Shown: one piece after another, positions 1 to 16,342 of the stretch
Layout of the letters: each line of letters starts with the position of its first letter
How positions within the stretch are numbered: the stretch's first letter is position 1
DNA from: a virus
Lineage: Duplodnaviria; Caudoviricetes
Strand: one strand, 5' to 3'
IMG/VR virus record: IMGVR_UViG_3300043039_000142
Location: 1 to 29,315 of that record
Length of the DNA: 29,315 nucleotides
The notes under the pieces: generated by a model
Databases searched by the model: none
Told to the model about the DNA's origin: nothing
Seen by the model: only the letters and a program-made list of their open reading frames with translations
Made by a program: the position numbers and the translations under genes

Positions 1-49
1 ATTGTTTACCTCGTATATCTCGAAGTATTTCTATAAAATCTCTAGCCAT
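1..49 (-). CDS. Partial CDS, N-terminus only (MARDFIEILRDIRGKQ...), runs off window
   Basis: ATG at 49-47 preceded by an AAGGA RBS; frame open to the window edge. Confidence 0.6.
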   Translation of the reverse strand, partial: MARDFIEILRDIRGKQ

Positions 50-65
50 TTTATTCCTTTTTTAT

Positions 66-443
66 TTAGTCGCATACAGCATACTCTGGATGCTCAACTT
101 CCATAAGCTCATCGATAGTCCATTTATCTAATGCTTTGTAAACCTGCAGCATATCCTTTGGTAGAGATATGTTACTTTCAGTTTTATATTTTGTATAATT
201 AATATATCCAAAATATAAATCTTTTTCTTCATCAGTCATATCTGCAATGCAGTTTAAAGATAGTGCTTTTTCGTATGCTTCTAAGAAGTGACTACTAAAT
301 ATAACTATTTCACCATCAACTCTTCTGTCTATTCCGTAAGGAGGCTTAGAACCAATAAGATCTTTTACAAAAGAAATTCCATCAGTAAGAGTTATGTCAC
401 CATACATAATAGTATCATTGAATGAATTAAATGCCCCACCCAT
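66..443 (-). CDS. Hypothetical phage protein (125 aa)
   Basis: ORF track; tightly packed with the upstream gene in the minus-strand block. Confidence 0.75.
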   Translation of the reverse strand: MGGAFNSFNDTIMYGDITLTDGISFVKDLIGSKPPYGIDRRVDGEIVIFSSHFLEAYEKALSLNCIADMTDEEKDLYFGYINYTKYKTESNISLPKDMLQVYKALDKWTIDELMEVEHPEYAVCD

Positions 444-444
444 A

Positions 445-870
445 TTAAGACTCCATATCTAAATCTAATGTTCCATCAGATTGTTTTCTTATCGAAGACA
501 AGATTGATTCAATCTTACCATTATAATGCATAATTAATTTTGTAGCTGCTTCATCATGTGCTTTTTTCTTATCTCTACTTAAAGATCCTGCTACAAATTC
601 TGCTAATGGATAACATAGTTCATTGTCTATATCAAGTGCGTCAGAGTCATGAACTGGAAGCTTTGGATTTCTCATTAGGTAATCTCCAGTAGCTTTCCTC
701 AAAATATCTTTGTTTCTATTTAGGGTAAGAAGGTGCAGAGCCTCAGCTTCGTTAGCAACCATATTAAACCCATATGACAACATTGACAACATAACATTCT
801 CGTCTGATGGCAATGCGTTATCGCCAGTTAAAAGACCTTTTACAAGATATTTAAAACTTCCATATGTCAT
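445..870 (-). CDS. Hypothetical protein, possibly head-tail adaptor-like virion protein (141 aa)
   Basis: AGGA RBS; lies downstream of the terminase, where N4-like phages carry gp67. Function is positional inference only. Confidence 0.55.
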   Translation of the reverse strand: MTYGSFKYLVKGLLTGDNALPSDENVMLSMLSYGFNMVANEAEALHLLTLNRNKDILRKATGDYLMRNPKLPVHDSDALDIDNELCYPLAEFVAGSLSRDKKKAHDEAATKLIMHYNGKIESILSSIRKQSDGTLDLDMES

Positions 871-961
871 ATTAGATTCCTTTTATTATATTATTTTTAT
901 ATTTTTTATTAATTTGTATCTAAACACAATTATACTTCACATTTGCTTAATTTAGTATTAG

Positions 962-1432
962 TTACTCTATTCTTCTACCATTCGGTAAAACAATTCTATT
1001 AATACCTTTACCTTTTTCGTTCTGACAATACTCCATTAACTGTTTTTTGTATTCAGGATTTCTATCAAATTGAGACTGACTAGGAGCATAAGACCAATTA
1101 CCTTCATTACCACTCCATTGTCCACCTTCTGCAGATTTTAATCCCTGTATTACATAAGGACTCTCATCGCTAAATGTAGGATGTCCTGGTAGTTTTCCAC
1201 CAGCAAGGTAGCCTAAACCCAACCCTTGAGGATTATCTAAGGCATGCTTACCAGTTCTTATTCTTTCAGCTTCATTTAACGCTTGTTCATCAGTAAGAAT
1301 ATAATCCCCTTTTAAAGCAGAGTTTGTTTGTAACCTGGAGGGTACAAGACCTTGACTTCCTGCAGAGTTATTTAACAAATTAACAGCATCTGTTAATGTA
1401 AACATATGAGGACCATTATTAGCTATTTTCAT
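962..1432 (-). CDS. Hypothetical protein (156 aa)
   Basis: ORF track; motif KLPGHPTFSDES...GGQW; TGTATAAT promoter-like element upstream (about 1504-1511, minus strand). Confidence 0.75.
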   Translation of the reverse strand: MKIANNGPHMFTLTDAVNLLNNSAGSQGLVPSRLQTNSALKGDYILTDEQALNEAERIRTGKHALDNPQGLGLGYLAGGKLPGHPTFSDESPYVIQGLKSAEGGQWSGNEGNWSYAPSQSQFDRNPEYKKQLMEYCQNEKGKGINRIVLPNGRRIE

Positions 1433-1584
1433 AGTATCAACTCATTTTTTTTTTTTTTGATAATTTTTGTTTCATTTGTATCCTAACTATTCATTTTGTA
1501 AGCATTATACATTTGTATTGCTTAATTATTTATTTATTAATAAGCTATTTTATCAAATATATACTTTATATAAGCTTTTATATT

Positions 1585-3312
1585 TTAAGCATAACTGCTA
1601 TACGCATTATCGCTATATACATCACCAGACTCTACTCTTGACCATATTCCACCCTTGTTTTTAGACATATTATGATTGGTAGAATAAGTGTCTAGATAGT
1701 CAGCAAGCCCTGGAACAGGATATCTTATGTCAATCATACCAAGCTGAGACACTGTATCGATAAAGTCATCTTCGGCTCCAAATCCAGCATACGTAACATA
1801 TTTCAATTGATTAAGCGCCTCTCTCATATCTTGAGTATTTCTTAATTCATTAGGAAAAAATATTTTTTTATTCTGGAACATTGGAAGCATCATTCTGAAT
1901 CTCCAGTGTTTGTTTCCACCTTCAAGTCTAGACATGATTCCTTCAGCTCCCTGCTTAGCACCTTTCTGTCTAGCAATGGTAAACCATTCACTTCTCTTGA
2001 GCATCATTTCTTTTAATGCGAATATATGAGCTTTTTGCTGACCATCTACTTCTATCCCGACATCAACACTTCTTCCTCTTGATGTAGCCCAATATTTAAC
2101 CATTCTAAATAGTTCATCATATTGCTCCTGAATGCCTTGTCTTTTTACACATAAATCAAGAAGATAATAATCTTGGTTTGGACCAACAGCCCAAGTTGTT
2201 ATTGCACTAAAATCACTTTTTGCCTCACTTGTAGTAGTAAAGTCAGTGGTTATGTATATATTATATGCACCAAGTCTTGATTCTATATCTGATCTAGAAT
2301 ACCATTCAATCATTGAATCTTGGATCATTCTATCTTCTTCTGAACTAATTCTAAGCATAAGCTCTTGGTTGAATGCTCTAGTCGAATTTGATCCAGCTGC
2401 ATCTTCGTATCTTTCCATTACTCTCTCATAGGAATGCATTTGTTCCCATGCTCCAACAAAGTCTTCTCTCTTTAAGTCTGGTCCGATTCGTTCACATATT
2501 GGCAAACAAACTGGAGTCCAAGAGCCAGATTCAAGAGCTGAGTAAACGGGATCCTCTTTGTTAAATGGAGTATTAACAAGTATAACTTTACCTCGTCTAC
2601 CATCAAGTGCATTAATTGCATCAGAATATAGCATTGACCTAACATTGTTCATTATTGTTTCAGAGTTAGCATCAGCTTCTGTCTTAATAATATCGTCACC
2701 AAATATAAGTTGAGGTCTTTGACCTTTATATCTAATACCCCTGATAGATGAGTTTCCACCTTTGGTTTTAAACATAAACGATCTATCTAAAGCCTTTCCT
2801 TTTCCTTGTCGAAGGAACTCACATTCTTGGTCTGTAAATCTCATGTCTTCAAAGAATTCATTACAAAATATACTTTCCTCACACATATCTCTAATGGTGT
2901 TTGCCATAACTTTAGCACCACCTTCCTGAGAATCACCTATGCCAACAGAAAATGAAACACTACCAAAGTTTGGCATTGTTCCTTTTATTGCTAAATATAC
3001 TGGCATGAATGCAGTTATAATTGTTGATTTAGCTGTACCCCTTGAAGCAATGATAGCTATCTTACGTGAGTTGATTCTAATCTTTTCCTGTATATGAGGA
3101 GCATATGGATAATTCTCTCTCTTTACATTTCCAAAAACTAAATCAACAAGAAAATAATGCATTAAAGCATTACCAACTTCTGGCTCTTTTCCAAGAACCA
3201 ATCTTATGACATTAAAAAAATCTAGAGCATCTTCTGATGGAGAATATCCACCAAAGGTCAAATCTATATTATCCAATGCTTCATCTACATTAAAAGAATA
3301 ATCACTAGCCAT
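1585..3312 (-). CDS. terL: Terminase large subunit, N4 gp68-like
   Basis: Walker A-like ASRGTAKST, Walker B IRGIR...LIFGDD, motif III NTPF, nuclease motifs ITTDF, SDFSA, GIEVDG and EDDFIDTVS; FNQELMLRI block recalled from N4-type terminases. Confidence 0.93.
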   Translation of the reverse strand: MASDYSFNVDEALDNIDLTFGGYSPSEDALDFFNVIRLVLGKEPEVGNALMHYFLVDLVFGNVKRENYPYAPHIQEKIRINSRKIAIIASRGTAKSTIITAFMPVYLAIKGTMPNFGSVSFSVGIGDSQEGGAKVMANTIRDMCEESIFCNEFFEDMRFTDQECEFLRQGKGKALDRSFMFKTKGGNSSIRGIRYKGQRPQLIFGDDIIKTEADANSETIMNNVRSMLYSDAINALDGRRGKVILVNTPFNKEDPVYSALESGSWTPVCLPICERIGPDLKREDFVGAWEQMHSYERVMERYEDAAGSNSTRAFNQELMLRISSEEDRMIQDSMIEWYSRSDIESRLGAYNIYITTDFTTTSEAKSDFSAITTWAVGPNQDYYLLDLCVKRQGIQEQYDELFRMVKYWATSRGRSVDVGIEVDGQQKAHIFALKEMMLKRSEWFTIARQKGAKQGAEGIMSRLEGGNKHWRFRMMLPMFQNKKIFFPNELRNTQDMREALNQLKYVTYAGFGAEDDFIDTVSQLGMIDIRYPVPGLADYLDTYSTNHNMSKNKGGIWSRVESGDVYSDNAYSSYA

Positions 3313-4097
3313 TATGAGTTCTCCTCTACTAATTGTGCATCAAGAATTTCGTCCATATTTATATTTAACTTCTGAACATCAAGAATATTCTTTCCAGATT
3401 CCAAATCAAGCTTTTGTTGTCTAGCAATCAACGCAAGCTGATTAGTCATTTCTGCGTATACACTCTTAGATTCTTTATCCATACCAACTTTAAGATTTAT
3501 TGTACTATCTTCTGGCATTTGAGTAATCTCTCTAAGTTCTTTTGCAGCTAGATGTTGAACATGTGCAGAAACCTTTTGATCTGTTCCAGATGCAATTCCA
3601 TTCATCAAATCAAACTGTTTTTTTACAGCAGCATGAAAGTATGGCTGATATGTAACATACGCTGGAACCATCATCTTTTTGTCTATCTCCACAACCATGT
3701 CGCTATTGTTATATCCAGAAACATGAGAGGCAATAAATCTATTCTCGTTCACTAGCTTGTCATATCTATCTGGGAAAACAATTGCCCATGCCTGTTCATT
3801 GGTAACACCTGGACTATTTTTTAAACAACAATATTTTACTGCATTAACAAGCTGCTCAATCGTGGCTCCTTGTTTTCCAAGTATATGCATTGAACCCATT
3901 AATTTTTCTTCAAAATAATTCTGGTCAATATCAGTATTTAAACTTACATTGTTTATTTCATTAGCAATTTCTTCTGTTGCTCTAGCACCACATCCCTTTG
4001 GAAGGAATTTCTTAATCTTTTCAACTGTAATATTCTGACTATGATTCACTACTGGAAGCAGCGGATCAGTGGTTTGTTTATTTTCAGATTCATTCAT
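3312..4097 (-). CDS. N4 gp69-like protein (putative terminase small subunit)
   Basis: Stop overlaps the terL start; motifs NAVKY, A...FPDRY and VSGYN...VP resemble gp69 as I recall it. Confidence 0.7.
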   Translation of the reverse strand: MNESENKQTTDPLLPVVNHSQNITVEKIKKFLPKGCGARATEEIANEINNVSLNTDIDQNYFEEKLMGSMHILGKQGATIEQLVNAVKYCCLKNSPGVTNEQAWAIVFPDRYDKLVNENRFIASHVSGYNNSDMVVEIDKKMMVPAYVTYQPYFHAAVKKQFDLMNGIASGTDQKVSAHVQHLAAKELREITQMPEDSTINLKVGMDKESKSVYAEMTNQLALIARQQKLDLESGKNILDVQKLNINMDEILDAQLVEENS

Positions 4098-4274
4098 TTA
4101 AAACTCCATCTTGTTTTGTTCAAGCAAAACTCTGTTTACATTTTTATATTCTCTAGCCATTGTTCTTACAGCGGAACTAATATTCTCAGAACCAGTATGT
4201 TTAGTACCGTATATCTTTAAAATATCAATTGTCTCTTGGTCTAAAAGCAATGTTTTTTTAATACCTTTACCCAT
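4098..4274 (-). CDS. Small RHH-like DNA-binding protein (58 aa; not in ORF track)
   Basis: Hand translation MGKGIKKTLLLDQETIDILKIYGTKHTGSENISSAVRTMAREYKNVNRVLLEQNKMEF; AAGGA RBS; beta-strand plus two-helix pattern; stop abuts the gp69-like start. Confidence 0.7.
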   Translation of the reverse strand: MGKGIKKTLLLDQETIDILKIYGTKHTGSENISSAVRTMAREYKNVNRVLLEQNKMEF

Positions 4275-4328
4275 GTTTTTCCTTTATTTTTTCGTTAAAT
4301 ATCATACAAATATTAGTGCATGATACTT

Positions 4329-4400
4329 TTATTATACTAACATTATACATTTAAATGTCTTAAGGAATTCTTAAGAATTATTAGGAATTATTAGGAATTA
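4329..4400 (-). promoter_or_regulatory. Sigma70-like promoter for the RHH-terminase operon, with 10-bp tandem repeats upstream
   Basis: Minus strand reads TTAAG...TTAAG...TGTATAATGTTAGTATAAT; near-perfect TTAGGAATTA repeats at 4371-4400 on the plus strand. Confidence 0.55.
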
Positions 4401-4452
4401 GAAATTAACAATTATAAGATTATTTTTAATTATTTTATTAAGTAGTTTATTA

Positions 4453-4538
4453 TGGAGGAAGACAAGGTGCACGATACCTAATGCTTTCGCATCGCTTCAC
4501 TTAGCAGGCGAGCCTAGAACCTATCTAGTTTATCTTCC
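4453..4538 (-). tRNA. tRNA-Ser(GCT)
   Basis: Acceptor GGAAGAT/GTCTTCC, anticodon loop CTGCTAA, long variable arm, encoded CCA; atypical T-loop ATCGTGC and U73. Confidence 0.85.
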
Positions 4539-4541
4539 ATT

Positions 4542-4615
4542 TGGCATGCGATCAAAGAATCGAACTTTGTCTACGAGGGTTTGGAATCCTGCACGTCGCC
4601 ATGACTGTATCACAT
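4542..4615 (-). tRNA. tRNA-Trp(CCA)
   Basis: Acceptor ATGTGAT/ATCGCAT (A1-U72, G73 as in bacterial Trp), anticodon loop TTCCAAA, T-arm CAAAG-TTCGATT-CTTTG, encoded CCA; anticodon stem imperfect. Confidence 0.85.
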
Positions 4616-4738
4616 ATTTTTGTGTTTAATTTTTCTAGTATATTTCTTTCTAGACTCTATACTTTTAGTCTGTAAATTTATTTCTCTTTGATAATTTTTT
4701 ATTATATTGATATCTCTACTTTGCTTTGCCTTCTCCAT
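4610..4738 (-). CDS. Small basic protein, ArfA/BrfA-like ribosome rescue factor candidate (42 aa; not in ORF track)
   Basis: AAGGAG RBS 5 nt before ATG; MEKAKQSRDINIIKNYQREINLQTKSIESRKKYTRKIKHKNM; C-terminal Y-x-R-K-x-K-H motif; TGA lies at tRNA-Trp positions 4-6. Confidence 0.6.
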   Translation of the reverse strand: MEKAKQSRDINIIKNYQREINLQTKSIESRKKYTRKIKHKNM

Positions 4739-4835
4739 AGCATCTCCTTGCAGCACTCATAGAATCATTTGTAGCACAGCTACACCAGCGAACAGCATTC
4801 TTTCTAGCAAATCTTTTATTATCTTTCTTTGTCAT
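4716..4835 (-). CDS. Small basic Cys-containing peptide (39 aa; not in ORF track)
   Basis: AAGGA RBS; MTKKDNKRFARKNAVRWCSCATNDSMSAARRCYGEGKAK; overlaps the start of the ArfA-like ORF. Confidence 0.5.
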   Translation of the reverse strand: MTKKDNKRFARKNAVRWCSCATNDSMSAARRCYGEGKAK

Positions 4836-4850
4836 TTTATTAATCCTTTT

Positions 4851-5330
4851 TTATAATTTAGCAATAAACTTAAGAACATCATCTAAATCAAAAGTATTTC
4901 TTAGATAATTTGCTCCAAGAGTTGTAAACTGTACGTTTCCTTCTATATATCCTCTATTGTTATCTATTCTATCAACAGAAGCTTGATCAAGTTCTTTAGA
5001 AGTTCGTTGTTTTGCATGATGCATCTCTATGTTTGTTATTGCACACAAGCCTTTTTGTTTGTTCCATATAGTTTCTAAATATTCAGCACTAATTATAGGT
5101 TGTGTTTCATTGAAAGAAAACTTACGCTTTCTAATGTTTATCAAATAGTGGTTGAATGGATTAGACTTTTCTATAGCTTTTTTAACTACATATTCTTTTC
5201 CACAATCTCTACTACAGCAATGAACGCCATTTCTATCTATTGTTTTCTTTATAAGCCTATTTTCTTTACTAAAAAATACACCACAAATTTTGCATTCTAC
5301 TGTTGAGCTTGGTCTATTATATTTACTCAT
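4851..5330 (-). CDS. His-Me finger/HNH-like endonuclease with N-terminal Cys cluster (putative free-standing homing endonuclease)
   Basis: CKICG...CCSRDC; Q.GLCAIT...ASVDRIDNNRGYIEGNVQ motif; located inside the tRNA array. Confidence 0.75.
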   Translation of the reverse strand: MSKYNRPSSTVECKICGVFFSKENRLIKKTIDRNGVHCCSRDCGKEYVVKKAIEKSNPFNHYLINIRKRKFSFNETQPIISAEYLETIWNKQKGLCAITNIEMHHAKQRTSKELDQASVDRIDNNRGYIEGNVQFTTLGANYLRNTFDLDDVLKFIAKL

Positions 5331-5397
5331 ATTTGTCCTTGGATAATTGTTTTATACTTGAAGTATAACACAGTTCTCCTTAACATTAACTTTACAA

Positions 5398-5472
5398 TGG
5401 AAGAGGATGTTGGATTCGAACCAACGGCTCCCTCATTAACAGTGAGGTCCCTTACCACTTGGGTACATAGCT
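5398..5472 (-). tRNA. tRNA-Asn(GTT)-like, chimeric or pseudo (acceptor stem does not pair)
   Basis: Perfect anticodon arm CCTCA-CTGTTAA-TGAGG and T-arm GTTGG-TTCGAAT-CCAAC with CCA, but 5' AGCTATG versus 3' ATCCTCT gives only 2 of 7 pairs. Confidence 0.7.
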
Positions 5473-5475
5473 ATT

Positions 5476-5547
5476 TGGTGGAGAATAACGGTAACGATCC
5501 GTTTCTTCCTGATTGCAAGTCAAGAGTCCAGCCCATCTGGATTCCAC
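5476..5547 (-). tRNA. tRNA-Ala(TGC), non-canonical
   Basis: Anticodon loop CTTGCAA, G3:U70, A73 and CCA present; T-loop ATCGTTA, U2/C71 mismatch and shortened acceptor-to-D-arm linker. Confidence 0.7.
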
Positions 5548-5557
5548 AATTTTTTTT

Positions 5558-5631
5558 TGGAGCGAGATAATGGAGTCGAACCCTTCTAGTCGATTTGGAG
5601 GACCGATACATAACCGCTCTGACAATCTCGC
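5558..5631 (-). tRNA. tRNA-Gly(TCC)
   Basis: Acceptor GCGAGAT/ATCTCGC, U73, anticodon loop CCTCCAA, T-loop TTCGACT, CCA. Confidence 0.9.
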
Positions 5632-5642
5632 ATTATTACTTA

Positions 5643-5718
5643 TGGTGTGCCTGACAGGACTTGAACCTGCAACGACATGGTTAAAAGCCATGGGTGTTAC
5701 CATTACACTTACAGACAC
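5643..5718 (-). tRNA. tRNA-Lys(TTT)
   Basis: Acceptor GTGTCTG/CAGGCAC, anticodon arm CATGG-CTTTTAA-CCATG, T-loop TTCAAGT, CCA. Confidence 0.92.
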
Positions 5719-5831: not shown

Positions 5832-5908
5832 TGGTACGTAATCCAGGAATCGAACCTAGCAGTCCTTCCTTGTAAGGGAAGTTCCTAACCAATCGGCGTC
5901 TATCACGT
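5832..5908 (-). tRNA. tRNA-Val(TAC)
   Basis: Acceptor ACGTGAT/ATTACGT, anticodon arm CTTCC-CTTACAA-GGAAG, T-loop TTCGATT, A73, CCA. Confidence 0.9.
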
Positions 5909-5912
5909 ACAC

Positions 5913-5987
5913 TAGAGTCCACAGTAAGAATTTAACTTACGTATTCCTATTTTGCAGATAGGTGCAATAACGCTCTGCCATATGGAC
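5913..5987 (-). tRNA. tRNA-Cys(GCA)
   Basis: Acceptor GTCCATA/TGTGGAC, U73, anticodon arm CCTAT-CTGCAAA-ATAGG; 3' end reads CTA instead of CCA; T-loop TTAAATT. Confidence 0.85.
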
Positions 5988-6034
5988 ATTTGGTTTAAAG
6001 TATATTTGAGAAAGTTTGCTTTGGATAGGGTTAG

Positions 6035-6076
6035 AAAACAAAGGCTCTCTCAGAATAACTTCTGAAAAAGAACCTT
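6035..6076 (-). terminator. Intrinsic terminator-like hairpin of the putative attenuator
   Basis: AAGGTTCTTTTTCAGAA-GTTA-TTCTGAGAGAGCCTT (15 pairs including G:U, 2-nt bulge) followed by TGTTTT, about 50 nt upstream of the first tRNA. Confidence 0.7.
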
Positions 6077-6097
6077 GATTCTCTTTAAGAAGTTATT
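6054..6097 (-). promoter_or_regulatory. Antiterminator hairpin overlapping the leader stop codons and the terminator 5' arm
   Basis: AATAACTTCT (6097-6088) pairs perfectly with AGAAGTTATT (6063-6054); the stem extends through AAAGAGAATC/GGTTCTTTTT after one mismatch. Confidence 0.7.
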
Positions 6098-6182
6098 AGC
6101 GAATGCCGTCGGCAGCAACAGGTCTCTGATTCTCAGAAATAAAATTTATCGTCATGTTAAAATGCTTGAATAAATGTTTCAT
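6096..6182 (-). CDS. Leader peptide (28 aa) of the putative tRNA-operon attenuator (not in ORF track)
   Basis: GAAAGG RBS; MKHLFKHFNMTINFISENQRPVAADGIR then TAA TAA; promoter-like TTAAG...CTAAG...TATACT/TAATAAT at about 6224-6256. Confidence 0.65.
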   Translation of the reverse strand: MKHLFKHFNMTINFISENQRPVAADGIR

Positions 6183-6262
6183 GTTTACTACCTTTCTTAT
6201 TAGTTTGTTTAAGTTTATATAGAATTATTACATAGTATATCTTAGATACACCTTAATTATAC

Positions 6263-6571
6263 TTACTCTATACCATTTTTTTCTAAATTTTTACTATCAT
6301 CTATCTTGCTAAGTGAATCAAGGAGCTCTTCCATCCTTAGAGCCATGGATGTACTTGCACAATTTAAAACAACATCTGCATCAGATCTGGTGTCTCTTAT
6401 TTTCCCATCTGTAATTGCTCCATAAACCTGTGAACTATTCTTCATTAACATATAATAGTCTAGCATTTCTTGTCTTAGCCAATCAACACTAACTATCAAC
6501 TCACCATCTTTGCACATGTCAGACCAATATACTTTTTCAAATTGGTCAATATCTTTATCTGTAACTGTCAT
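6263..6571 (-). CDS. Hypothetical protein (102 aa)
   Basis: ORF track; TAATG coupling to the upstream ParB-like gene. Confidence 0.75.
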   Translation of the reverse strand: MTVTDKDIDQFEKVYWSDMCKDGELIVSVDWLRQEMLDYYMLMKNSSQVYGAITDGKIRDTRSDADVVLNCASTSMALRMEELLDSLSKIDDSKNLEKNGIE

Positions 6572-7302
6572 TATTTTTCTCTCTCTTTCATTCTTGAATA
6601 TAAAACTTTAATTGCTTCATCTAATATATTACAATCTTCGAAAGCTGTCTCAAACTTTGATACTTCTACATTAATTAAATGTCTATCATCTGATGTTAAA
6701 CTATCTCTTTCATCGTGGCTCTGTCTAGATGTTCTGTTGTCATAAGATTCGCTCTCTACTTTTTTAAAGTATGAAAGTATAGTCTTTAGCTTATCGGTAT
6801 ATCTTGGATTACTTATAGTTCCAACATTATACATGTCTCCATTCCACAATGAGTCAATCAAATCTGGTCTAATTCTGTTTAATGAATTTACATCACCTAT
6901 AGCATTCTTTCCTATTCCATATTCAGTTGCAAACTCTCCTTGACTTCTTTTAGTGTCTTCTGACATCATTGATATTTGATAATCTTTCCAAGCACTAATT
7001 GATCTTTGTAAAACAGTCTGGTGCCTTCTTATCTCAGAGCTTTTAACTATTCTATATATATCATCATCAGTAAGGCTATCATTTATTTCTGCAAGAATAT
7101 ATTCCTCTTGTAACTCGTCAAGTGCTTTCATTCTGTGCCTTCCATCATAAACCATACCATTTGAAACACGGATAGGATCAAGTTGACCATTTCTTTCTAG
7201 ATTAGATTTTAGTCCAAGGAACTGACTGTCACTTTGAAACGGATTAAGGAAAGCATGTTTATGTAATTCTAAATCTGATATTTTAAGCTTAGCAATTTTC
7301 AT
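6571..7302 (-). CDS. ParB/Srx N-terminal domain protein with possible HTH
   Basis: LKSNLERNGQLDPIRV...MVYDGRHRMKAL (ParB DGxxR motif); SQGEFATEYGIGKNAIGDV is HTH-like. Confidence 0.8.
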   Translation of the reverse strand: MKIAKLKISDLELHKHAFLNPFQSDSQFLGLKSNLERNGQLDPIRVSNGMVYDGRHRMKALDELQEEYILAEINDSLTDDDIYRIVKSSEIRRHQTVLQRSISAWKDYQISMMSEDTKRSQGEFATEYGIGKNAIGDVNSLNRIRPDLIDSLWNGDMYNVGTISNPRYTDKLKTILSYFKKVESESYDNRTSRQSHDERDSLTSDDRHLINVEVSKFETAFEDCNILDEAIKVLYSRMKEREK

Positions 7303-8397: not shown

Positions 8398-8605
8398 TAA
8401 ACAAATAGTATTGGTTTTTGGATTGTTATACTACGGATTTATTGCAATTAATTTTATAGTTCTTGTAGTCCTGTTCTGTAGCTATAAAGATTTCAGAGAA
8501 TATTTAAATGGCGAGAGTATCATAAATATTATATTTGCAGCAATGGTATTCTGTGGAATGAGTTTCATAATATATTTTATATTTTACAAAAAAGGAAAAA
8601 AATGA
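8369..8605 (+). CDS. Small membrane protein (2 predicted TM segments)
   Basis: AAGGAG RBS; two hydrophobic stretches. Confidence 0.7.
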   Translation: MELFYQLDIDKQIVLVFGLLYYGFIAINFIVLVVLFCSYKDFREYLNGESIINIIFAAMVFCGMSFIIYFIFYKKGKK

Positions 8606-8865
8606 CTAAAGCTATATTAACATTTGACAATGGATACAGTATAGAACTAAATGAATTCCAAGACATCAGAGGATTAAGACAAGATGGTCAAATACCAACA
8701 AAGCTTGAAGTTTTCTCAGATGAATATAACAAAATATCTGATTTTGATGACACCGCCTATTCAAAACAATTACTAAAGTGGATGTTCTTGCCACTGCATA
8801 TTTCTTTGCATCCCACGAAAAGAGAAAGTTACTTTAATGGTACATCATTTAAAGACAGCATGTAA
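8602..8865 (+). CDS. Hypothetical protein (87 aa)
   Basis: ATGA overlap with the upstream gene; AAGGA RBS. Confidence 0.6.
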   Translation: MTKAILTFDNGYSIELNEFQDIRGLRQDGQIPTKLEVFSDEYNKISDFDDTAYSKQLLKWMFLPLHISLHPTKRESYFNGTSFKDSM

Positions 8866-14311: not shown

Positions 14312-16342
14312 ATGAAACAAAGTTACAGAAGATCAAGAATCTTAGAGGGCAAACTAGATTTGCCAGAGCAAATTGTTGAATTAGTAGGTTCAAAATATAG
14401 AGAAGAAATGGATGCATTGTTCCAATCATTATGGATAAACTATGTCAAGAACAAAGGAAAACTATCAATTCCAGCATGGATGGATAGATTTAAATATCAA
14501 GAAATATTTAATGCGTTCACTATGCATTTGTCAAGAAGTGGATGGATTACAACCGTTGTTATTCCAGCAAGAAACTGGGGAGAATTATATCTAAATGAAG
14601 AAAAGTTATTACAGTTTGTTACGATTGATGAGCTTATTAAAGTAAGAGAAAGATATAAATTTCAACATTATAAATTAAACATGAATCCAGAAATAACTGG
14701 TTCAGATTTAACAAAAATAGGAAATAGAAAAAGATTTACTGGTATCAAAAGACCAGGATTCGCTCATGCAGCAAATAGCAAATTTAAATATGATATTCCA
14801 ATGCTTGAAAGATACAAAGATGTTATTGAATTAAATTTAACAAAATCAATGGATAAATTACATTTAAAATATGAATCATTTCATGACAATGTAGATTATT
14901 CATCAGTATCTAAGAATATCTTAGAATATCATACATATAATTCAGATGCAGAATTTACAACAGGTAAAAATATTAATGATTCAAGAGGTAGAGCAATTTC
15001 TGATTCATTAAGAAAAGTATTCAATCCAATAAGTAATAAAGATGCTAGAGCATTATTGATAACTCCAGGAATGAAGTTTAACGACTCTGGATTAGAAGCA
15101 GTTTATTTATTTATTGCAGAATTATTAGGTAAAAAAGCTAATACATTCAAAGAGAAAGCAAATGCTGGTAGAAGAGCATATTATAATAGAGAAATTCATG
15201 ATATGAAATATCTTGCAGAACTTAATGATAATATGACAGCTGAAGAAATTATTGAAGAGGAGAAGAGAGCAGAAGAAGCAAGAAAAGATTTACATGAAGA
15301 AATTTGGTTAGAAAGAATTTATGCAGAACTTGACGCATACAATGAATCTAAAACTATTAAAAATTCAATTCATACTAGAATTTTATATAGAAGAATCAAA
15401 AACAATAGAAACACAATTGCAGAGTATAGAGCCAGAGGAGGTGAATGGCATATATCTAGAATTCCAGGTCTTCAAGAATCAATTGATAATGCACTAAAAG
15501 ACCTTAAAGAACAAGTTATTTCTGAAGATTTCATGTGGACAGTTCCAATAGAACTTGATGCAACAGCTTCAATGTTACAAATAGAAGGTGCATTACTAAA
15601 TCACTTACCATTCCTTGACAGAACAAATTGTTGTGGAGAAATTCTTAAAGATATATGGACATTCCCAGGAATACCAAGAAATCAATTTAAGAAAGCAATG
15701 ACTCCAATATTATATGGTTCATCTAAACAATGTAATCATTTGTGGAAAAATGCTAAAATTAAATACACAAGAAAACAAGTTGTTGCATTTGAAAAGGAAG
15801 TAAGTATTGGAGAAATGGCAGTTGCTAATGAATTCCAAAAGTTTCTAATTAATGAATCAAATCCAGAAGTAAATATGACATTACATTCAATGGATGAATT
15901 CTATGAAGTAGAATGTAATAGATATACAAACGAAGGTGATTATCAAGTTAAATACATGGCATATGACACTGAATCAGATGGACCATTAACAATTTACCAT
16001 ACTCATACTAAACGAGTACCAGATTTACAACAGTTTAAAAGATTCTTTCCAACTGGATTAATTCATAATCTTGATTCACAAGTAGCCAATCAAGTATGTT
16101 TAGCATTATTATGGGTTATATCAATTCATGATGCATTCTTAGTTAATCCAATGGAAGCAAACAAAACAAGAGCTGAATATTGTAAAATGATTAATAAAAT
16201 CTATGCAAGAAGAGAAGAAATTCTTATGAATTATTTCAAATCAATTGGAATAGATTCAAGTTCAGCAACAGCATGGAAAAGAGTTACAGATAAAGTAATT
16301 CCAGCAGATGGATTTGTATGCCAACCATCAGCCTTAAAGTAA
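14312..16342 (+). CDS. Single-subunit (T7/N4 RNAPII-family) DNA-dependent RNA polymerase
   Basis: DSRGR (DxxGR), motif A PIELDATASMLQI, motif B RNQFKKAMTPILYG, LIHNLDS, motif C SIHDAF. Confidence 0.92.
   Translation: MKQSYRRSRILEGKLDLPEQIVELVGSKYREEMDALFQSLWINYVKNKGKLSIPAWMDRFKYQEIFNAFTMHLSRSGWITTVVIPARNWGELYLNEEKLLQFVTIDELIKVRERYKFQHYKLNMNPEITGSDLTKIGNRKRFTGIKRPGFAHAANSKFKYDIPMLERYKDVIELNLTKSMDKLHLKYESFHDNVDYSSVSKNILEYHTYNSDAEFTTGKNINDSRGRAISDSLRKVFNPISNKDARALLITPGMKFNDSGLEAVYLFIAELLGKKANTFKEKANAGRRAYYNREIHDMKYLAELNDNMTAEEIIEEEKRAEEARKDLHEEIWLERIYAELDAYNESKTIKNSIHTRILYRRIKNNRNTIAEYRARGGEWHISRIPGLQESIDNALKDLKEQVISEDFMWTVPIELDATASMLQIEGALLNHLPFLDRTNCCGEILKDIWTFPGIPRNQFKKAMTPILYGSSKQCNHLWKNAKIKYTRKQVVAFEKEVSIGEMAVANEFQKFLINESNPEVNMTLHSMDEFYEVECNRYTNEGDYQVKYMAYDTESDGPLTIYHTHTKRVPDLQQFKRFFPTGLIHNLDSQVANQVCLALLWVISIHDAFLVNPMEANKTRAEYCKMINKIYARREEILMNYFKSIGIDSSSATAWKRVTDKVIPADGFVCQPSALK

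Follow-up and report, generated by a model that had tools for sequence, protein, structure and literature searches.

Multivalent leader-peptide attenuators are known, among them those of ilvGMEDA and thr. In the Escherichia coli pheL–pheA system, a ribosome that stalls on a hungry codon of the leader brings about readthrough (PMC3082878), and for Epsilonproteobacteria the 20–35 aa leaders LeuL, TrpL and MetL, with gnTAnaAT promoters, have been proposed to couple transcription to charged tRNA (PMC3847290). Ribosome stalling also serves antibiotic sensing: the stall-sensing uORF toiL acts via translation initiation and Rho (PMC12121999), and the vmlR leader demonstrates that attenuation is workable in Bacillus subtilis with NusG-dependent pausing (PMC9226507). 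The nearest outcome to the one proposed here is described for the Anabaena trn operon, a long tRNA array that is normally silent and is induced under translational stress via TrcR (PMC8421152; PMC10272220). What phages gain from their tRNA genes has long been an open question, the main answers being codon compensation and the replacement of host tRNAs cut by nucleases. T5 tRNA-Lys counters PARIS (PMC11464382), and a T5-like tRNA-Tyr counters retron-Eco7 in a rescue that depends on a strong promoter (PMC11555353). By analogy with these cases, replacing tRNAs cut by host nucleases is the likely purpose of phage tRNA blocks.

Here we analyse a phage tRNA array that is preceded by a putative leader of this general kind. 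The window, i.e. the whole stretch of DNA that was analysed, is a virus record of 29,315 bases with 29% G+C. It encodes a terminase large subunit (TerL; PHROG 38 match) whose best named relatives are ~34–36% identical, the top one being classed as Schitoviridae, and the tRNA array lies on the same strand as the terminase genes, upstream of them. The late genes of N4 are read by the host sigma70 polymerase. For one window gene, named homologues were found in Aliarcobacter only (~42% identity), which tentatively points to a campylobacterote host. In our judgement the region ahead of the array is quite probably a ribosome-controlled transcription attenuator, with a leader that samples the amino acids of its tRNA block, the block being transcribed only if the ribosome stalls before approximately codon 25. 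Leader, RNA and array features described below lie on the minus strand of the window.

Leader ORF 1 (6093–6182) comprises 28 codons (6182–6099) followed by TAA TAA (6098–6093), and is preceded by a Shine-Dalgarno-like site (6188–6194) with AAGG at 6194–6191, 8 nt upstream of the ATG; its duplex energy is −5.3 kcal/mol with a generic anti-SD sequence. A candidate sigma70 −10 box, TATACT, is found at 6234–6239 (with TATAAT at 6261–6256 as an alternative) and would place the transcription start near 6227. TATACT is also present 31–41 nt upstream of the leaders of the related contigs L049 and L001 that are introduced below. An earlier note, made from the letters of this DNA, had reported the ORF with its ribosome binding site, its use of 17 of the 20 amino acids without Cys, Trp, Tyr or any single-residue run, and its unusual G/C-ending codons, all of which we could reproduce. 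At least 17 amino acids occur in just 6 of the 158 non-overlapping 27-codon stretches taken from the long ORFs of the window. Eleven of 27 third positions are G or C, compared with a background of 16.9%, and 11 was reached in 2/158 stretches. Since codons 26–28 (6107–6099) are able to extend the antiterminator region by pairing with the 3′ arm of the terminator, some of this G/C excess may be there for the RNA fold and not for the use of rare codons. In sequencing run X4 a single contig (depth 2.5) covers 6085–6318 with six differences, one of them synonymous in the leader ORF (6165) and none in 6085–6164, which is too thin to count.

Folding predicts a 19-bp antiterminator hairpin (6054–6097; −17.1 kcal/mol, z −4.3, 0/200 shuffles equally stable) that begins in the stop codons of the leader. 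The tandem stops had been taken to form the 5′ arm of a ~20-bp hairpin; the hairpin itself holds up at 19 bp, but the stops provide only the first 5 nt of its 20-nt arm. A predicted intrinsic terminator follows at 6035–6074, with its stem at 6074–6043 and seven U in the tract 6042–6035, and is supported both by folding (−17.0 kcal/mol, z −3.5, 1/200 shuffles) and by a terminator scan. The two structures share 6074–6054 and are therefore mutually exclusive, as had been claimed. The terminator does lie upstream of tRNA-Cys, the first tRNA; it is not immediately adjacent, however, since 47 nt separate the end of the U-tract from the tRNA, and this interval contains no promoter-like match. A further 16-bp helix (6007–6052), which the earlier note had missed, is compatible with the antiterminator only; it hides the U-tract and also covers a C-rich, G-poor stretch (6042–5988; 13 C and 2 G in 55 nt), and in the modelled folds its role would be to lock the ON state.

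We then followed the predicted folds as a function of ribosome position, with the RNA left free from 13 nt beyond the A site up to the stem, so that the resulting probabilities describe equilibrium folds and not kinetics. The terminator probability stays below 0.1 with A-site codons 2–24 and is at least 0.8 from codon 26 onwards; a footprint of 10 or 16 nt shifts the switch point by one codon. This is the behaviour expected of the proposed attenuator logic, in which a ribosome at the stop gives OFF and an upstream stall gives ON, and, as detailed below, both helices carry two-sided base changes relative to L049. Untranslated window RNA starting at ~6226 takes the antiterminator fold (terminator probability 0.00, predicted ON), while RNA folded from 6179 forms the terminator instead. 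The protector (1:2) helix that would give termination without translation is not found in the window; it is found in L049, L001 and L016, whose untranslated leaders adopt the terminator fold (0.77–0.99, predicted OFF). Readthrough upon loss of translation, which the earlier note had proposed, is thus predicted for the window leader and is not conserved in the three sister leaders.

As a specificity control we used unrelated phage terminators. A search with the leader-2 terminator pattern had returned 14 loci, namely L001 itself and 13 unrelated terminators, 10 of which served as controls after three near-duplicates had been left out. None of the 10 ever fell below a terminator probability of 0.1 over 34 5′ truncations; the window did so in 29/34, L049 in 28/34 and L001 in 16/34. 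When the 45 nt upstream were shuffled, the terminator was silenced equally well in 4/400 cases for the window, 35/400 for L049 and 47/400 for L001, the controls for the latter two being weak.

Block 1 of the array opens with tRNA-Cys(GCA) at 5915–5987 (ARAGORN, Rfam). It is followed by an atypical tRNA-Val(TAC) at 5832–5908, for which we have a weak Rfam match, a relaxed ARAGORN call without assigned type, a cloverleaf-like RNAfold structure and an anticodon read by eye, and then by tRNA-Lys(TTT) at 5643–5718 and tRNA-Gly(TCC) at 5558–5631 (both ARAGORN and Rfam), tRNA-Ala(TGC) at 5476–5547 (relaxed ARAGORN) and a chimeric tRNA at 5398–5472. The chimera joins the body of tRNA-Asn(GTT) to the 3′ acceptor strand of tRNA-Ser(TGA), as seen by Rfam and by comparison with L001. 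Downstream lie an HNH-type endonuclease gene inserted in block 2 (4851–5330; PHROGs) and the block 2 tail, i.e. tRNA-Trp(CCA) at 4542–4615 (relaxed ARAGORN) and tRNA-Ser(GCT) at 4453–4538, which has an atypical T-loop and is reported by ARAGORN at -ps75 only. Default ARAGORN misses several tRNAs of the array, whose T-loops are atypical. In the Ser tRNAs (window 4453–4538; L001 1145–1240; L016 957–1131), inspection by eye suggests a U ahead of CCA, a position at which G is usual. The HNH insertion is comparable to T4 segB, which is described as adjoining the T4 tRNA array (PMC8421152).

Contig L001 is 99.96% identical to the window over window positions 1–5427 and then diverges; judged by this identity, it is a full-array copy of the same phage. 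Its tRNAs run Thr, Pro, Gln, Asp, Phe, Ile and, after a 315-nt gap, Tyr, Leu, Leu, Ser, with a probable Arg(TCG) tRNA read by eye. Set against L001, the chimeric tRNA marks a deletion of >1.2 kb, whose join lies within the T-arms of tRNA-Asn and tRNA-Ser (window 5398–5472; L001 1145–1240), that removes the rest of block 1, a second leader and the first four tRNAs of block 2, so that in the deletion form the Trp and Ser(GCT) tRNAs have lost leader 2. Run X1, which may be the source of the window, holds both array forms at similar depth (22.7 for a 58-nt contig over the join, 17.3 for the contig of the Ser form), and the deletion may therefore be a real polymorphism and not an assembly error. 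The segment of block 1 between the tRNA-Asn of the window and the start of L001 at Thr is missing from the sequences, and tRNAs for His, Met and Glu are presumed to lie there.

How well does leader 1 match its block? It contains 12 of the 13 amino acids carried by the block-1 tRNAs known so far (p 0.045); matching codons make up 21/27, an enrichment that is not significant (p 0.18) because block 1 spans most amino acids. Only two codons, a single Leu and a single Ser, belong to the Leu/Ser/Tyr/Trp group (depletion p 0.09). Leader 1 has no Cys codon although tRNA-Cys is the first gene of the block, an absence for which leader 2 does not account. With U or C in the third position of its codons for Val, Gly, Ala, Pro and Arg, the U34 tRNAs of the phage would read these five family-box codons only by four-way wobble; standard cognates exist in 7/13 cases. 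These codons may instead report on host isoacceptors. Since the enrichment in leader 1 is not significant by itself, the case for matching draws mostly on its homologue in L049 and on its partner, leader 2.

L049 (TerL 56% identical to that of the window) carries tRNAs for Asn, Phe, Gln and Pro only. Its 31-codon leader devotes 15 of 30 codons to precisely these amino acids (p 8e-6; 5/20000 base-shuffled leaders), and all four anticodons of the block have a cognate leader codon. The RNA after the leader stop is homologous to that of the window and keeps both helices, no counterpart of the 16-bp helix 6052–6007 being seen. The earlier note had called for covariation upstream of related tRNA arrays, and this was found: among nine comparable antiterminator pairs, four changed on both sides, two on one side and three not at all, and in the terminator inner stem two of eight pairs changed on both sides, one on one side and five not at all. 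All such counts compare two sequences for each leader, the pairing partners being those of each sequence's own fold.

The U-tract after the terminator hairpin is absent from L049, which raises the question of the output of the switch. The same ribosome-driven RNA switch could act through Rho loading, polymerase pausing, or processing or decay of the tRNA precursor rather than through intrinsic termination. Besides the retention of both helices without a U-tract, this alternative would accommodate the C-rich, G-poor sequence that follows the hairpin both in L049 (11 C, 4 G in 66 nt) and in the window, where helix 6052–6007 hides it in the ON fold only. We nevertheless hold it to be unlikely, given that hairpin and U-tract occur together in the window, L001 and L016, and that L001 and L016 both have six U directly after a terminator stem of the same length.

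Leader 2 occupies L001 649–744 within the 315-nt gap and has 31 codons, of which codons 4–19 all specify Leu, Ser, Tyr or Trp. Downstream are the tRNAs for Tyr, Leu, Leu and Ser, followed by the HNH gene, Trp and Ser(GCT). Overall 18/30 codons are L/S/Y/W (p 1e-6), a match that base-shuffled leaders reached in 1/20000, with 15/17 before the switch; N/F/Q/P codons number 0/30, and the leader offers a cognate codon to each of the six block-2 anticodons. Termination is predicted to take over at codons 18–19, where the matched run ends; the ribosome profile is noisier with two extra tail bases. A second attenuator serving the Tyr, Leu, Ser and Trp tRNAs would account for why leader 1 lacks Trp and Tyr and has a single Leu and a single Ser. 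The full array is thus likely split, with leader 1 for most amino acids and leader 2 for Leu, Ser, Tyr and Trp.

In L016 (TerL 42% identical to that of the window) a leader homologous to leader 2 follows tRNA-Met and precedes a block with tRNAs for Leu, Cys, Tyr, Ser and Ser; the contig ends at the array start, and its leader 1 would lie outside. Fifteen of 28 codons are L/C/Y/S (p 1e-4; 66/20000 base-shuffled leaders), leader codons cover 5/5 block anticodons, and the leader gains one Cys codon where tRNA-Cys joins the block. It also contains three Trp codons, yet there is no tRNA-Trp in the locus. Between L001 and L016, five of ten antiterminator pairs changed on both sides, as did two of nine terminator pairs, with one further one-sided change. 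The L016 terminator is favoured at equilibrium at every ribosome position (0.7–0.9), so that this leader would switch only kinetically; the 5′ arm of its antiterminator is captured at 0.5–0.7 for codons 2–16.

In this phage and in two of its distant relatives, then, the make-up of the leader follows the local tRNA set. The earlier note had viewed the leader as a general sensor of translation failure, in which any stall or loss of translation induces block 1 and codon identity is irrelevant. The window leader taken by itself fits such a reading, having 17 amino acids, no run and no significant enrichment, and giving the ON fold with a ribosome anywhere up to about codon 25 or with none. The related leaders do not: the homologous leader of L049 is N/F/Q/P-rich before exactly those four tRNAs, leader 2 takes up the amino acids that leader 1 leaves out, and the untranslated sister leaders fold OFF. 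We regard a purely general sensor as improbable, and a block-matched sensor of tRNA supply as the likely reading.

The same comparisons bear on another explanation, in which the terminator is an ordinary one, the repeats are due to chance, the small ORF is accidental or dead, and the tRNAs are transcribed from another promoter. Inverted repeats do arise easily in AT-rich DNA, exact degenerate patterns retrieved no leader-peptide homologue, and most arrays of the clade have no leader. Against these points stand the two alternative helices, each with pairs changed on both sides, the three leaders matched at p ≤1e-4, and the proximity of the U-tract to tRNA-Cys with no promoter-like match between them. 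Moreover, only 47/20000 shuffles of 6226–6099 produced an SD-led ATG ORF of at least 20 codons that continues into the fixed stop. This explanation is, in our view, very improbable, and we consider the leader system of the window, on the strength of comparison and modelling, to be a real, conserved and probably functional attenuator.

To place these leaders among other phage arrays, one scanning rule was applied to all fetched arrays, with a match threshold of p <0.001. In 12 named phages an SD-led small ORF was found at 11/44 block starts and a match in 0/44 (best p 0.009); in this clade the corresponding figures were 7/20 and 3/20, and 16/20 clade block starts have no such leader. Note that the scan scored the window leader 0/27 because the missed tRNA-Val split the block, leaving Cys only, and that it chose the wrong hairpin for L049, both being limits of the rule. 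For the window leader, blastn against 50,697 phage records returned nothing beyond short chance matches. Exact degenerate patterns of the peptide end gave 0 homologues in viral contigs and a single match in genome contigs, a chance one inside another frame; the hairpin-arm pattern matched three times, always in unrelated inverted repeats. The neighbouring proteins 6571–7302 and 14312–16342, used as queries, retrieved no viral loci, and the complete relatives G006 and G008 gave no tRNA match. Rfam leader families and T-box had no match over window 5988–6260 (E up to 5), and neither the L001 and L016 leaders (E up to 0.05) nor that of L049 (E up to 1) matched Rfam.

Several neighbouring observations may be recorded here. 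L052 (~700–895) and L053 (~8550–8748) share a structured-looking non-coding stretch of ~200 nt right before a lone tRNA-Gln, with no leader ORF. L021 (6739–6813) and L066 (6528–6602) have a 24-codon SD-led ORF whose end lies 5 nt upstream of tRNA-Thr; the interval holds no terminator, an arrangement unlike the attenuators. L046, from a distant relative, carries a phage-borne tmRNA (4516–4863). In the window, a 58-aa ORF (4098–4274, minus strand) between the tRNA array and the terminase genes possibly encodes a DNA-binding protein; it has no match in Pfam or PHROG, and a counterpart apparently lies in L016 at ~1200–1345 (by eye). The 676-aa protein encoded at 14312–16342 (plus strand) matches three unknown PHROGs end to end and an RNA polymerase PHROG weakly, with no Pfam match above cut-off, and looks like a single-chain phage RNA polymerase.

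How would the proposed attenuator work? Presumably the host RNA polymerase would start near 6227, a ribosome would load on leader 1, and the polymerase would pause long enough for ribosome position to matter. With tRNAs in supply, the ribosome would reach codon 26 or the stop and mask 6097–6085; as this covers the 5′ arm of the antiterminator, the terminator is predicted to form. With a sampled tRNA missing, the ribosome would stall earlier, the antiterminator would persist, helix 6052–6007 would lock the ON state and block 1 would be made. The natural trigger may be a shortage of charged tRNA caused by host tRNA cleavage or starvation, and the newly made phage tRNAs would then relieve the stall. 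Leader 2 would exert the same control over the Leu, Ser, Tyr and Trp block. Campylobacterota are classed at phylum level among runaway transcribers (PMC13323073); if this is the host phylum, the attenuator would need a pause, as vmlR does in Bacillus (PMC9226507), and we identified no pause site. Even so, leader peptides have been proposed for this phylum (PMC3847290).

A bolder version, which we put forward tentatively and hold to be somewhat less probable than not, is that of a modular tRNA-damage alarm, in which each block has its own leader, rewritten as tRNAs come and go, and a host anticodon nuclease cutting one tRNA class induces only the block that replaces it. If this is true, it would be an inducible, target-specific counter-defence that needs nothing but RNA, and the tRNAs under host attack could be read off from each leader. 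tRNA genes that are switched on only when their own codons stall would argue for on-demand replacement as the reason why phages carry them.

How does this compare with known systems? Among the papers listed by our literature searches, which covered few subscription journals, we found no published account of attenuation of phage tRNA genes. In PMC8421152, on Anabaena trn, 'attenuat' and 'terminator' have 0 occurrences, as do 'attenuat' and 'leader' in PMC11555353 and 'attenuat' or 'leader' in PMC13015707. Control of tRNA genes by a trp-operon-style leader has thus, as far as we could find, no earlier description, and is likely a variant of known attenuation. Anabaena trn, the nearest in outcome, differs in relying on the ribbon-helix-helix repressor TrcR, in lacking codon specificity and in not being of phage origin. 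For the tRNAs that rescue phages from PARIS and retron-Eco7, the accounts cited above describe no inducible, codon-matched control of the kind proposed for the phage leaders. toiL and vmlR resemble the phage leaders in that a ribosome may stall at many positions and still set an RNA switch, but they are antibiotic sensors that control protein genes. The Epsilonproteobacteria LeuL, TrpL and MetL are likewise short leaders, in the likely host phylum, yet the genes behind them are biosynthesis operons, and a single amino acid is repeated in a run at their C-terminus; a likeness to E. coli LeuL was rejected, as no alignment was obtained.

The closest match in layout is to the pheL-type attenuators, which likewise pair a short leader ORF with an antiterminator competing with a terminator. 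Leader 2 of L001 shows every element of the classical layout, a protector fold included, whereas the window leader lacks a protector and, by prediction, is ON in the absence of translation. Unlike the pheL type, the phage leaders are phage-encoded, their targets are tRNA genes and not biosynthetic enzymes, and they would sense up to a dozen amino acids through one or two codons apiece. If true, the reach of attenuation would go beyond the supply of amino acids to include that of tRNAs, here through a direct feedback loop in a virus.
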